DNA of 5,642 nucleotides from a virus. This document shows positions 274-5,642 of this stretch, one piece after another (position 1 is the first letter of the stretch; every line of letters starts with the position of its first letter). Below the pieces are notes generated by a model. It was not told where the DNA came from. It saw nothing but the letters and a program-made list of their open reading frames with translations, and made no database searches. A program made the position numbers and the translations under genes. The stretch is taken from the IMG/VR virus record IMGVR_UViG_3300035646_000027; one strand, written 5' to 3'.

Positions 274-655
274 TGCTCTTCTCCTTTTCTGCAGATACTT
301 CTGTAACTTTTTTCTGCTTTCGTTGGATTTCCATTGCCGTGGCTTGTGCTGTTGCGATCATAGCGTGATACTCGTGAATGTTTGTAGGCCACTCCGTAAT
401 ATCAATGGTTTCGTCCGTTTTTGCGCTGTCTACCAGACTTTTGGCAAACTCAGGGTCAAAGCTTGCTTTGCGGACAATGCTTTTGATGTCGCACTCGTCT
501 GCATAGCTCTCGATTTCGGCCTGAATGTCGATTGGTTCGGTTTCAATCAGCTTATTATTGCCTTTTTCGTCCTTGCCCCATACGTACTGCTTTCGCAGTT
601 TTTCGCCTGGATTTGAAAAGAAGGGCTTTCGCCCTTCCTCGTATCGTTTATTCAC
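260..655 (-). CDS. Hypothetical acidic protein of about 131 aa (MNKRYEEGRKPFFSNPGEKLRKQYVWGKDEKGNNKLIETEPIDIQAEIESYADECDIK...EKEKSNEPE). It is a possible internal scaffolding protein (VP3-like) given its acidity and its position directly upstream of VP1.
   Basis: This is the C-terminal two-thirds of track ORF 260..835. A GTG at 655..653 is preceded by the SD GGGAGG with a 9-nt spacer and overlaps the stop of the 80-aa ORF, which suggests translational coupling. The TAA stop at 262..260 lies 11 nt inside VP1. The functional assignment is inferred only. Confidence 0.45.
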   Translation of the reverse strand: MNKRYEEGRKPFFSNPGEKLRKQYVWGKDEKGNNKLIETEPIDIQAEIESYADECDIKSIVRKASFDPEFAKSLVDSAKTDETIDITEWPTNIHEYHAMIATAQATAMEIQRKQKKVTEVSAEKEKSNEPE

Positions 656-890
656 GCGGCTTGCCCTCCCATACCTTATCCGGCTCGATTTTCTCAAACT
701 CGCCGTTTTCATCGTTGAAGTTTGCGATGTGGTAGCCCTTGTAGTCCTCAGGCGACTGCCCAAGGAAGGTCTTTTCGTCCTTTGCCATGATATTGCACAT
801 CCGGGCAAAGGTTTCGTTGCTCTTGCTTTCACCAATGTAGCAATAGTTCTTTGCTACGCTGTCGTAGATGCCATAGTATTCGTGAATCAT
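648..890 (-). CDS. Hypothetical protein of 80 aa (MIHEYYGIYDSVAKNYCYIGESKSNETFARMCNIM...).
   Basis: The ATG at 890..888 has a strong SD AAGGAG 7 nt upstream. The composition is protein-like, in contrast with the overlapping alternate frame. The TAA stop at 650..648 overlaps the GTG start of the downstream ORF. Confidence 0.55.
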   Translation of the reverse strand: MIHEYYGIYDSVAKNYCYIGESKSNETFARMCNIMAKDEKTFLGQSPEDYKGYHIANFNDENGEFEKIEPDKVWEGKPRE

Positions 891-902
891 GTTTTTTCTC
901 CT

Positions 903-1022
903 TTACAGTCTGATGCCGCCCCGCATGGGTTTCTGGCTCAGGTTGATACTTTTCGTCTTGCGTGCCGTCACGTTGAACATTCGCTTGTCAGTGCGTCCAG
1001 GCATCCGCTGTCTGTGCTTCAT
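903..1022 (-). CDS. Small highly basic protein of 39 aa (MKHRQRMPGRTDKRMFNVTARKTKSINLSQKPMRGGIRL, net charge about +11). It is a probable DNA-binding / packaging protein analogous to phiX174 J and to gokushovirus ORF8.
   Basis: Hand-translated; this ORF is not in the ORF track. The ATG is at 1022..1020 with the SD AAGGGAG 7 nt upstream (plus-strand ctccctt at 1030..1036). The TAA stop is at 905..903, 12 nt before the next gene's ATG. The size, the Arg/Lys richness and the position upstream of the capsid module match microvirus J-like proteins. Confidence 0.5.
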   Translation of the reverse strand: MKHRQRMPGRTDKRMFNVTARKTKSINLSQKPMRGGIRL

Positions 1023-1233
1023 TTGTGTACTCCCTTCGCATTAGTTCCAGTTGGATATCGTTTGCCCATGCTTTCATAATCCAAATTCGGTCAACAATTT
1101 TTTTTGCGTCCTCAATGTTGGATATTTTTTTGAGCATTTTATACCCGGCTTCGATTTCTTTGTATAACCTATCTGCTTCAATTCGTAAATTTTTTTCGGT
1201 CTGGTCTCTGACTTGCCATGTCTTATGTAACAC
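988..1233 (-). CDS. Hypothetical protein of 81 aa, helical and charged.
   Basis: The track ORF starts at GTG (plus-strand cac at 1231..1233). The SD GGAGGAG lies about 13 nt upstream. The frame is open upstream to 1284 with no ATG. The next in-frame ATG is at codon 33 (MLKKISNIEDAKK...). No similarity was recognised. The 3' end overlaps the J-like ORF by 35 nt. Confidence 0.45.
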   Translation of the reverse strand: MLHKTWQVRDQTEKNLRIEADRLYKEIEAGYKMLKKISNIEDAKKIVDRIWIMKAWANDIQLELMRREYTNEAQTADAWTH

Positions 1234-2219: not shown

Positions 2220-3239
2220 TTACAAAATACCACGTTTTTTCGTTTGTTTTTTGGTGACACGTTCTTTGGTCTCTAAGACGGTTTTATAGTCTTGATTCTC
2301 TAGCTGTAGTCTCTTTTCTTTCATTGCGTTTTTTTGTCGGTTTTGCTTAATTCTCCACAATCTTTGTGGGTTTTCTGCTTCCATCTGTTTTTCATAGTAT
2401 CTTGGAATTTGTGCCCGTTTTCCGTTGACGCATTGAATGTAACCTTGTCGCCAGATTTCCGCTTTGTGCTCTTGATAGTAGTGGTCTCCAAGTCCTGGCT
2501 TTAAGCTCATGCAAGCAAATGGTTTTGTTTGCCCTAGTTCATAGTACGAATTAGCTTTTTTGCCGTCTATTTCGTACATTTTTTTTGTAACGTATCCTGC
2601 AACATATCGATACGTTTCTGGAACTGCTTGTGCTATCTGGATTTGTCCCATTCCCCACAGGTCTGCTAACCATTTACTGGTATAGTATCCGTTGTGGTGA
2701 ATTTTGTACAGATTTTCTAGGTCTGTTGGTTTCCAGCCGTATAGTATCATATGGTAGTGTGGCCTTGCTGTCTGTTCTCCGTACTCACCCGCCACAAAAT
2801 AGCGTAATTTGCCCTTGTAAGCCTTCCTGAGGCGTTTTAAGAATTTTTGAATATCTTCATACAGCAAAATTTGAACACTGCTAGGGCGCTTCTTTCCCGG
2901 CTTCCACGTGTATTGTACCTTTCGCATGATTTCCCCAGTTTTTACTATCATGCCCGGTACATGTTCATCATCATAAGTTAGTGTTATAAACCAAACTTCT
3001 TCTTTTGGATAGTCTCGCGCCTCAAGCTCTATGCGTGTTGTCCAGTCCTCTCGTTGTCTAATTCTGCATCCGATACATTGCCCGCATGGAATCAACATGA
3101 CTTTTGGATTATACATCAAATCTTCATATCTCAGCTGTTTCCCGCTTAACTGAGAAAAGCGGGCGAGTGAATATACCCGCCCGCTCTGTTCTCTATCATC
3201 CGGGTTGTACAGCCTTATTAGCGGCTTGTAACAACTCAT
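2220..3239 (-). CDS. VP4: Replication initiation protein VP4, an HUH rolling-circle endonuclease related to phiX174 gene A protein.
   Basis: 339 aa. It has a CxxC zinc-finger-like motif (PCGQCIGCR), motif [11 protein letters not shown], motif [10 protein letters not shown] and motif [14 protein letters not shown] (compare phiX174 A protein YVAKYVNK, with two catalytic Tyr). A weak SD GGGTGA lies 9 nt upstream. The ATGA overlap with VP2 indicates translational coupling. Confidence 0.9.
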
Positions 3240-4099
3240 TTCAGATAATCACCCGGCTTTCTCTTCTCTCCGTATTTTCCTGTCTTGTCCTGCGGGTTCA
3301 TTGCTCTGTTTTCTTTGTTTTTCGGTTTCGGAGTTGGCACTGTCTGTTCGGTCTTTTCCATCTGCTTATAGGTTTTGAGCAAATCTTCTGTCAGCTGCAC
3401 TGGACTACTATAGCCTGTGCTCATTTGACTGCCTACGGCTTCTGCCAGCTGATACCATTGTGATTTACTTTCACTTCGGCTGTAGTAACTGTTTGGCACG
3501 TTGCCGTTTAGCGTAGACACTCCCAGTGCGCTTGACGCTGGCATTCCCATGCTTGCGCCTGTAATTGTTGCGCCTGCGCCCCCTGGCGTGCTTGCTCCAC
3601 CCTGTGCGTATGCTAGAATTGGGTTCAGCCCGGCTTTTCGCATGTCTTCTACTGTTCTTTGGTATGCTGTATTGCTCATGCGCTCTTGGAATTGTCTGTT
3701 TGCTAGCGCTTCGGCTGAATTGTATGCCATTGCTGCGTTGTTTTCTATGTGGTTGTAAATGCCCTGTTGAATTGCTGATAACGTATTATAGCCCATTTGC
3801 ATTAACATATTTTGGCGGTTCGTTTTGCTTTGGAAGGTATTCTGCCCGCTCTGCCACTCATAGTATTTGTTGAGGTAATCCATGATTTGCTTGTCGTTTG
3901 TTCCTCCTTCGCTCATGGATGTACTCTGTCCCCCGCCTTGGCTTTGGCTCATGTTGCTACCTTGGCTCTGGTTCTGGCTTTCCTGTCCAAACATGCTTGA
4001 TAGGCCGTTTCCTATCAGTGACATTCCTGTTGTTACGATTTCTGGATGACTTGCTAGCCATGTTCCAGCGCTTGTTAACATTGCTCCTAGTCCTGCCAT
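3236..4099 (-). CDS. VP2: Minor capsid / DNA pilot protein VP2.
   Basis: The 287-aa ORF lies immediately downstream of VP1. It has a low-complexity Q/G/S/N/M-rich segment ([26 protein letters not shown]) and the segment [37 protein letters not shown], which resembles the conserved core of gokushovirus VP2. Its TGA stop overlaps the VP4 ATG (ATGA). Confidence 0.8.
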
Positions 4100-4156: not shown

Positions 4157-5642
4157 TTAGAGTTTCTCAAGCCCTGGTACGCTGTAGAGAGGAATGCAGC
4201 GCGTTGTATTGTTCATTACTCGAATCGCTCCAAAAAACTGCGGTTCGTCCTGAACGATTAGCGTCCTTGCAATTTCTGTTTTGCCCTCGCTCATCCACTC
4301 TTGACTTAGTGTCGGCACTTTGTCGTATTTGTCCGCATAGTGCCAGAAGTCCAGCGTTCCATCTGCGTTACTGCGCATTTTACCACTTACCCTGTCCGGC
4401 TTCATGCGATAGTCTGCCCAGGCTTCCTGATAACCGAAGGTCTCATTATCTGTGCTCGTGCCAGTCAACATGATTTCTTTTTTCTTGACAGGCTGTTCGC
4501 CAATATTTGCGAACTGCGGGAAATAGAAGTCCAGTCTGTCTGAACGGCTCCAGAAGCGTTCAAGGCCCTGCTGATAGCTTCTGTTATGACGTACACACAT
4601 GACACCGATAACAAATCCGTGTTCCTCAAAGCTCTTTGTGAAACTGCTTTCGTTGATAGGTGTTACCGACATTGCACCCGTTTCACCAATAGGCGTGTCG
4701 TTTGCGGTCTGCTGTCCGCTGGTCTGCACGATTTGGTTAATATTTACGTGATAGCGTCCGCCACCCAGATATTCAGGTACCTGAACCGTTTTATCGCTGA
4801 TGCTTACGCCAAAAATTGCACGTACCTGCTCGCGGTAGCGACTGCCGCCGCGTGCCAGCGCTTCGTAATAGTGTTGAACTGCAAAAGCTTGCCGTAGCTG
4901 GTTGATGGTGATTCCTGATACGTTGCTTAGGTCTGTTGCCAATGTTGCAATGTTTGCGTCTGTGCTTCCGCTTGCTGATGCTCCATTGATTTGCGCCGCG
5001 TTTTTCACTGGGTTATTCAAATAATTGTTGTTTTCAATAAATGGTGTTGCGCCGCCGATGCCGTTTAGCCAAATTCTGTCTGCTACGTCTTCACCAGTGA
5101 CATTTGTTACTCTCACTGGTGCTTTTCCTGCAATTCCGACTGCTACTTCCGGCCCTCTCTGCGGATACGGCAGACAGCTTGTAAAGTAGTCGTGGAATTT
5201 TGAGACCGGGAGACAGCGCCCGCCTGCAATTGCTTTCAGTAAGGTATTTTCTTCCTTTTCTTCTCCTTTTGGGTCGTCTCGATATTTTATATCTTCATCA
5301 TCTGTTTTGAATAGCGCTGCATTTCCTACGTTCTGATCTCTGAAGAATTCGTTCCAGATTTTAACGTATGCTCTTACTGGTAGTGCATTGATTTCTACTC
5401 TCCTGTTTTCCTCGTGACTGAATATTTTTGTGGGTACTCCCATGTAGTCAAGGATTGATTCTTCGAAAGGTACTGCATCTTGCGGCGATTCGATTATGAT
5501 TTTTGGCACTCTGTAGGTTTTTTCCGGTTCCCACGGTGTTTGCTCTACTTCACCCATGAAGTATTTGAAGTTGTCCCATAGGATTCTATTAGGACAAAAG
5601 AAGTAGTAAAAATCGATGTATGCATCATCGAAAACAGGATAT
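4157..5642 (-). CDS. VP1: Major capsid protein VP1 (Microviridae F-like jelly-roll capsid). This segment runs from the junction to the stop codon, and the gene continues upstream into 1..273.
   Basis: Six-frame ORF 4157..5557, 466 aa. The minus frame stays open upstream through 5558..5642, reading ...YPVFDDAYIDFYYFFCPNRILWDNFKYF-MGEVEQ.... The motifs YVKIWNEFFRDQN, RFWSRSDRLDFYFPQF and a G/S/N-rich variable insertion are typical of gokushovirus VP1. The TAA stop is at 4159..4157. Confidence 0.9.
   Translation of the reverse strand, partial: YPVFDDAYIDFYYFFCPNRILWDNFKYFMGEVEQTPWEPEKTYRVPKIIIESPQDAVPFEESILDYMGVPTKIFSHEENRRVEINALPVRAYVKIWNEFFRDQNVGNAALFKTDDEDIKYRDDPKGEEKEENTLLKAIAGGRCLPVSKFHDYFTSCLPYPQRGPEVAVGIAGKAPVRVTNVTGEDVADRIWLNGIGGATPFIENNNYLNNPVKNAAQINGASASGSTDANIATLATDLSNVSGITINQLRQAFAVQHYYEALARGGSRYREQVRAIFGVSISDKTVQVPEYLGGGRYHVNINQIVQTSGQQTANDTPIGETGAMSVTPINESSFTKSFEEHGFVIGVMCVRHNRSYQQGLERFWSRSDRLDFYFPQFANIGEQPVKKKEIMLTGTSTDNETFGYQEAWADYRMKPDRVSGKMRSNADGTLDFWHYADKYDKVPTLSQEWMSEGKTEIARTLIVQDEPQFFGAIRVMNNTTRCIPLYSVPGLEKL
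5564..5642. repeat. Second copy of the 79-nt terminal redundancy (circular permutation overlap).
   Basis: Identical to 1..79. Position 5564 corresponds to position 1. Confidence 0.93.

Follow-up and report, generated by a model that had tools for sequence, protein, structure and literature searches.

Among the many short open reading frames (ORFs) of a small phage genome, one of only 39 codons that lies between an 81-aa ORF and the next gene raises the question of whether it is translated at all and, if so, whether its product is related to protein J of phiX174, to the ORF8 (VP8) proteins of the Chlamydia phages, or to neither. The DNA analysed, which is called the window hereafter, is the whole stretch of 5,642 nt from the IMG/VR virus record IMGVR_UViG_3300035646_000027. 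An exact direct repeat of 79 nt stands at both of its ends (1-79 = 5564-5642), and therefore the window is a complete circular genome with a unit of 5,563 nt, the repeat being an assembly overlap. Family and profile searches found VP1, VP2, VP3, VP4 and VP5, that is, a gokushovirus-type set, with VP8 on the same strand; the recognised genes all lie on the minus strand, in the order VP4 ... VP8-VP5-VP3-VP1-VP2 (Table 1). Because VP1 crosses the circular junction, the ORF list holds a 466-aa VP1 fragment without its N-terminus. The nearest GenBank relatives are gokushoviruses from the pig and human gut, and the window is the genome of a gut-type gokushovirus-like microvirus. PHROG and Pfam searches of the genome detected neither external scaffold nor spike genes and no homologs of D, E or G, and a scan of bacterial genome contigs with VP4 for a host or prophage gave no match.

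Two of the other genes may be described here. The start codon of VP3 is apparently the GTG at 653-655 (minus strand), which overlaps the VP5 stop (cGTGAATAA) and is preceded by GGGAGGG, and the phrog_24309 profile also has its position 1 at this codon. The VP3 ORF of 191 aa in the mechanical list, which starts from an upstream TTG, is probably too long. The peptidase M15 gene is also present in 26 of 29 relatives and is annotated in related GenBank records as well.

Table 1. Features of the window, with positions counted from its first letter
Feature	Position	Strand	Remarks
VP1 major capsid protein, 559 aa	273..1 then 5563..4157	minus	ATG at 273
VP1, C-terminal part, 468 of 559 aa	4157..5563	minus	8DES_A, 9CGM_A matches
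VP1, N-terminal part, first 91 aa	1..273	minus	continues over the circular junction
VP2 pilot protein	3236-4099	minus	
VP4 replication initiator	2220-3239	minus	
Peptidase M15	1347-1730	minus	Pfam Peptidase_M15_3, E=5e-25; PHROG endolysin
34-aa ORF	1239-1343	minus	conserved in relatives
81-aa ORF, GTG start	988-1233	minus	conserved in relatives
Shine-Dalgarno of the 39-aa ORF, AAGGGAG	1030..1036	minus	7-nt spacer TACACAA before ATG
39-aa ORF (putative VP8/ORF8), 39 codons + TAA	903..1022	minus	phrog_10695, conservation, 8DES_E
Codons for C-terminal MRGGIRL + stop	903..923	minus	motif common to phiMH2K and phiEC6098 homologs
VP8-VP5 junction, 12 nt, AGGAGAAAAAAC	891..902	minus	contains the VP5 Shine-Dalgarno; VP5 ATG at 890
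VP5 (Pfam Phage_ORF5), directly downstream of VP8	648..890	minus	PF20577, E=5e-12; phrog_1670
VP3 scaffold	260-655	minus	

The 39-aa ORF runs from an ATG at 1022-1020 to a TAA at 905-903, and its product is MKHRQRMPGRTDKRMFNVTARKTKSINLSQKPMRGGIRL, a peptide of 4.6 kDa with 12 basic residues (7 R and 5 K), a single acidic residue (Asp), a net charge of +11 and a calculated pI of 12.0, which is the upper limit of the calculator. An earlier note on this DNA had described an Arg/Lys-rich ORF with 12 K/R among 39 residues, a good Shine-Dalgarno (SD) sequence AAGGGAG with a 7-nt spacer, a TAA 12 nt before the next gene and an overlap with the preceding 81-aa ORF in another frame, and this description proved accurate on the minus strand: the composition and the SD are as described, the VP5 SD lies within the 12 nt that precede the VP5 ATG, and the 81-aa ORF covers the first 35 nt of the 39-aa ORF in a different frame. 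In addition, the SD of the 39-aa ORF falls within the conserved RREY codons (CGA AGG GAG TAC) of the 81-aa ORF, and that of VP5, (A)AGGAG, has one A in common with the stop codon of the 39-aa ORF. The window holds 76 ORFs of at least 25 aa, and the length of 39 codons alone is not beyond chance; among the 26 ATG-ORFs with 30-60 aa, however, this one has the most basic product.

The 39-aa ORF is a genuine gene: it codes for protein, it is held by purifying selection, and its ribosome-binding site (RBS) is conserved. Related loci were fetched through VP5 homology only, VP5 serving as an independent anchor, so the sample is unselected for the 39-aa ORF. An intact ORF of 39-40 aa stands directly upstream of VP5 in all 28 loci with enough upstream sequence; AAGGGAG precedes its start codon in 26 of the 28, one-base variants being found in L026 (AAAGGAG) and L012 (AAGGGAGAAC), and the start codon is GTG in one. 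In the window and in all related loci but two (26 of 28), the gap to VP5 measures 11-14 nt and begins with AGGAGAAAA; in L032 and L033, which diverge most, it begins differently and measures 19 and 17 nt, respectively. The pN/pS values were calculated from 28 distinct nucleotide sequences (27 loci and the window; L032, which has 40 codons, was omitted). Over the 27 codons outside the overlap, the frame of the 39-aa ORF gave pS=0.38, pN=0.023 and pN/pS=0.06, the other five frames of the same region gave pN/pS from 0.29 to 11.7, and no stop occurs in this frame in any of the 28 sequences. The conservation of ORF and RBS among relatives, which the earlier note had named as a check, is thus found, and the frame is nowhere broken. 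Furthermore, tblastn against 50,697 phage records located the peptide in 1,012 of them, 776 of the matches covering at least 80% of its length, and the ten organism-name groups listed for these matches (17 smaller groups stand outside that list) all bear microvirus names.

The 81-aa ORF upstream keeps its core, KTWNVRDQTE...WANDIQLELIRREY, in 28 of 29 loci and is rich in charged residues; it has no match in Pfam or NCBIfam, and its PHROG matches are only weak. In the gut clade the gene at this place is clade-specific, with a length of 73-81 aa. Its stop codon lies 11 nt inside the 39-aa ORF in 12 loci, 35 nt inside it in 14 loci and the window, and 14 or 17 nt inside it in two further loci, and the C-terminal 8 residues are present or absent according to this position. 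In the overlap region pN/pS is 0.23 in the frame of the 39-aa ORF and about 0.9 in that of the upstream ORF. The synonymous-site constraint in the overlap, which the earlier note had named as a further check, did not appear, pS in the 39-aa frame being not lowered there (0.58 vs 0.38 outside). Because the stop is variable, pN/pS is close to 0.9 and pS is not lowered, the tail of the 81-aa ORF is regarded as an unconstrained read-on, and the 39-aa ORF takes priority; nor does the 81-aa ORF run across its neighbour, since the tail ends 11-35 nt into it. Between the peptidase gene and the 81-aa ORF there is a 34-aa ORF, with the product MALIKVKDLREAIQLIKTVLERLDQIYHILKEEK, which 26 of 29 related loci have kept, with identities of 48-97%, and for which the searches gave no family; another unannotated mini-gene is likely here.

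As to the identity of the protein, the 39-aa ORF very probably encodes the gokushovirus VP8/ORF8, a judgement about family membership drawn from sequence comparison. The peptide matches phrog_10695 with E=4.1e-10 over residues 1-39 of 39, and the same family is matched by Chp2 ORF8 (6e-19), phiMH2K ORF8 (8e-8) and phiEC6098 VP8 (4e-10); SpV4 VP8 does not reach phrog_10695. Single-sequence similarity is weak (phiMH2K, E=2e-4 over 13 residues; Chp2, E=0.053; 8DES_E, E=0.013 by phmmer) because the protein is so short, and therefore a profile, A2, was built from 11 relatives and kept free of any reference VP8, so as not to be circular. Against all PDB sequences this profile found a single chain at E<=10, namely 8DES_E, at full length and with E=5.4e-6, which is labelled “Putative DNA binding protein” of the phiEC6098 virion; the SpV4 entry 9CGM was not recovered in this PDB search. 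When A2 was aligned by hhalign with the set of VP8s from Chp2, phiMH2K, SpV4 and phiEC6098, the probability was 97.6% (E=4e-12, 37 columns). The earlier statement that the ORF is the equivalent of the Chlamydia-phage ORF8 is supported by the common phrog_10695 and the profile results, which make it a sequence homolog of Chp2 ORF8, phiMH2K ORF8 and phiEC6098 VP8; of the three phages proposed for comparison, Chp2 and phiMH2K agree well and SpV4 is more distant, joining through the hhalign set.

The C-termini are particularly alike: the window has ...PMRGGIRL, phiMH2K ...AMRGGIRL, phiEC6098 ...SMRGGIRL, Chp2 ...IMRGGIRF and SpV4 ...PRGGRRF, and R34, G35, G36 and R38 are invariant among the window ORF, Chp2, phiMH2K, SpV4, phiEC6098 and the metagenomic members. 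An exhaustive single-sequence search of 1.84 billion representatives gave 19 matches, 17 of which, all mini-proteins of 34-76 aa, are laid out in the same way and close with RGG-x-x-L/M/F (RGGIRL in 10 of the 17). The reference VP8s have 38-44 aa with 12-19 K/R, a range into which the product of the window, with 39 aa and 12 K/R, fits.

VP8 is a putative DNA-binding protein and belongs to the six conserved gokushovirus genes (PMC7062461). The window VP8 resembles those of Chp2, phiMH2K, phiEC6098 and SpV4 in size (37-44 aa), in an Arg/Lys content of about 30-45%, in a calculated pI near 12, in a core (D/S)(K/R)(K/R)xF..TA, in the invariant C-terminal RGG(I/R)R(L/F) and in being encoded in a genome with VP1-VP5. 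There are, however, several differences. The window VP8 has 12 basic residues, whereas Chp2 VP8 has 19 and phiEC6098 VP8 has 17 (in the 37 residues read), and it contains one Asp; its charge of +11 is below those of Chp2 and phiEC6098, in a genome that is larger (5.56 kb vs about 4.5 kb). The gene is immediately followed by VP5, an order found in many gut microviruses, whereas ORF8 lies between VP3 and VP4 in Chp2 and between VP5 and VP4 in phiMH2K, and VP8 follows VP2 in phiEC6098 (PMC7062461). Moreover, unlike in the reference VP8s, its 5' end overlaps the clade-specific upstream gene.

Other readings of the locus have to be weighed against these data. A frame open by chance, that is, an untranslated spacer between the 81-aa ORF and VP5, would agree with the shortness of the ORF among the 76 of at least 25 aa, with an exact-sequence look-up that found no record of the exact product among called genes, and with the unannotated state of the site in most of the best GenBank records; yet next to nothing is left of its probability when the ORF is intact, with a conserved SD, in 28 of 28 independently chosen relatives, when pN/pS is 0.06 at a pS of 0.38, and when full-length homologs occur in 776 phage records and a homolog is resolved in a virion structure. 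It is just as close to excluded that the real gene is a 51-aa ORF on the plus strand at 889-1044 and the minus-strand ORF its mirror. The plus-strand frame is open and its pN/pS is lowered to 0.29, but this is a diluted mirror image which arises because it and VP8 have wobble positions in common, and the value is about five times that of the VP8 frame; its ATG is confined to the window and six relatives, 7 of 28 sequences, stops interrupt it in L009 and L027, and the recognised genes are all on the minus strand. For the hydrophobic plus-strand product there are no relatives in the databases, in contrast to the PHROG and the PDB chain matched by the peptide from the minus strand. ORF finders could call this antisense ORF as an artefact.

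It is also very improbable that the peptide is made but acts mainly in another way, as a uORF for translational coupling to VP5 or as a non-structural regulator. For a coupling function one may cite the stop codon 12 nt from the VP5 ATG, with an A in common with the VP5 SD, and the recurrence of this arrangement in 26 of 28 relatives, and the Chp2 annotation does label ORF8 a “nonstructural protein”; but the arrangement differs in L032 and L033, the amino acids are strongly conserved along the whole peptide, which is unexpected for a mere coupling ORF, and homologs are physically present in capsids (PMC11281519; 8DES, 9CGM). Since the Chp2, phiMH2K and phiEC6098 homologs do not sit beside VP5 at such a junction, the VP8 family is independent of it. 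A true evolutionary membership in the J family of the Bullavirinae (Microvir_J) is improbable, too, despite a size of 39 vs 38 aa, 12 basic residues in each protein, a hydrophobic C-terminal residue (Leu vs Phe) and the location of the last four residues of VP8 and J in the same capsid pocket (PMC11281519). Neither the window peptide nor the reference VP8s hit Pfam Microvir_J (PF04726) at E<=1, a model on which phiX174 J reaches 1.7e-16; hhalign of the VP8 profile with the J alignment gave a probability of 0.5%, BLASTP of the window peptide with phiX174 J gave no alignment, and the J motif ARLWYVGGxQF is absent from the peptide, whose gene has no D/E/F neighbours.

The term J-like, which the earlier note had applied to the ORF, consequently holds in one sense and not in the other: VP8 may well be a small basic analogue of J in DNA packaging, but it has no detectable sequence similarity to J, and, as far as the comparisons go, the relation is functional only. 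The J proteins of phiX174, G4 and alpha3 (phrog_2354) and VP8 are alike in being very small and very basic with a hydrophobic C-terminus, and J binds single-stranded DNA (ssDNA), goes into the capsid together with it in 60 copies and is anchored in a cleft of the coat protein. The C-terminal motifs, however, are LWYVGGxQF in J and MRGGIRL in the window VP8. The J gene lies between D/E and F in a genome with the external scaffold D and the spike G, whereas the neighbours of the window VP8 are the 81-aa ORF and VP5, in a virus without the external scaffolding protein D. In all solved microviruses VP8 and J place their last four residues at one and the same position of the capsid, but the path of the N-terminus in the capsid differs (5-fold for J, 2-fold for VP8; PMC11281519).

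What the protein may do in the particle can be considered with the help of two solved capsids. VP8 has been described as a polypeptide rich in Arg and Lys and as the analogue of phiX174 J. In the SpV4 structure at 2.5 Å, order is seen for its residues 9-38, which follow the inside of the shell; the N-terminal end points into the DNA, and the last residue, a Phe, sits deep in a hydrophobic pocket of VP1 close to the two-fold axis (PMC11281519). In phiEC6098, order is confined to the final 10 residues of VP8, and here, too, the C-terminal residues are buried in a hydrophobic VP1 pocket (PMC11281519). The SpV4 entry 9CGM contains 60 ORF8 chains. The window VP1 matches both capsids that were solved with VP8 (8DES_A, E=1e-107; 9CGM_A, E=6e-96), and its Tyr77 aligns with the pocket residue, Tyr83 in SpV4 and Gln86 in phiEC6098; the window VP1 is therefore the presumable binding partner of the VP8 C-terminus.

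By homology with the VP8s of SpV4 and phiEC6098 and by analogy with phiX174 J, we infer for the window VP8 DNA binding, presence in the virion, copy number and a role in packaging. Translated from its own SD within the end of the upstream gene, with VP5 following 12 nt later, VP8 would bind the single-stranded genome through its Arg/Lys-rich N-terminal two thirds during synthesis and packaging, and would enter the procapsid with the DNA, whose charge it would neutralise in part; 60 copies with +11 each would correspond to about 12% of the 5,563 phosphates. The C-terminal ...MRGGIRL would be inserted in the hydrophobic VP1 pocket near the two-fold axis, and the DNA would thereby be tethered to the shell. 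On its own, a basic peptide of 39 aa should be disordered. This mechanism is the most likely one as a whole, each step being somewhat less certain than the family membership, and the packaging role of gokushovirus VP8s in general is deduced largely from phiX174 J, which is presumably an analogue and is no sequence homolog.

A more speculative reading concerns the three consecutive genes. The RBS inside the RREY codons, the stop of the upstream gene drifting over 11-35 nt, and the VP8 stop abutting the VP5 SD could mean that the upstream protein, VP8 and VP5 form, in this order, a translationally coupled cassette which sets the ratio of the DNA-binding protein to VP5, the protein that switches from replication to packaging; under the same reading, a charge of only +11 on VP8 might be an adaptation to a genome as large as 5.56 kb. 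We consider such a cassette unlikely.

The 39-aa ORF is accordingly taken as the known gokushovirus VP8 DNA-binding protein, in the VP8-VP5 arrangement that is typical of gut microviruses. Among the best 60 of the 1,012 phage records, 33 have no feature at the match, 12 have a “DNA binding protein”, 9 a hypothetical protein and 6 list only the neighbouring VP5, so the earlier remark that such ORFs are routinely missed is justified by more than half of these best records. Pfam and NCBIfam have no model for the VP8 family, and PHROGs labels phrog_10695 “unknown function”. Gokushoviruses have few structural components, and VP8, which is one of them, is often left out of annotation; once the mini-ORF that ends in ...RGGIRL is spotted, the gene set is complete for this genome and for hundreds of similar ones. 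There is no new biology in this, because the literature already covers the protein family, where it sits in the capsid and what it probably does (PMC11281519, PMC7062461); since a known protein that is often missed has been recognised, the finding is correct but ordinary.

Finally, the part of the window at 1731-2219, about 490 nt, is without a convincing ORF and may be an origin or regulatory region. An Rfam search of the window matched no RNA family. Positions of about 1776-2070 have 78-86% DNA identity to otherwise divergent genomes, in which no annotation is given there. The region includes a perfect 13-bp hairpin (1943-1955/1968-1980), and another perfect one of 12 bp (2176-2207), which in the minus-strand direction comes right behind the VP4 stop, is followed by a T-run and looks like a terminator.
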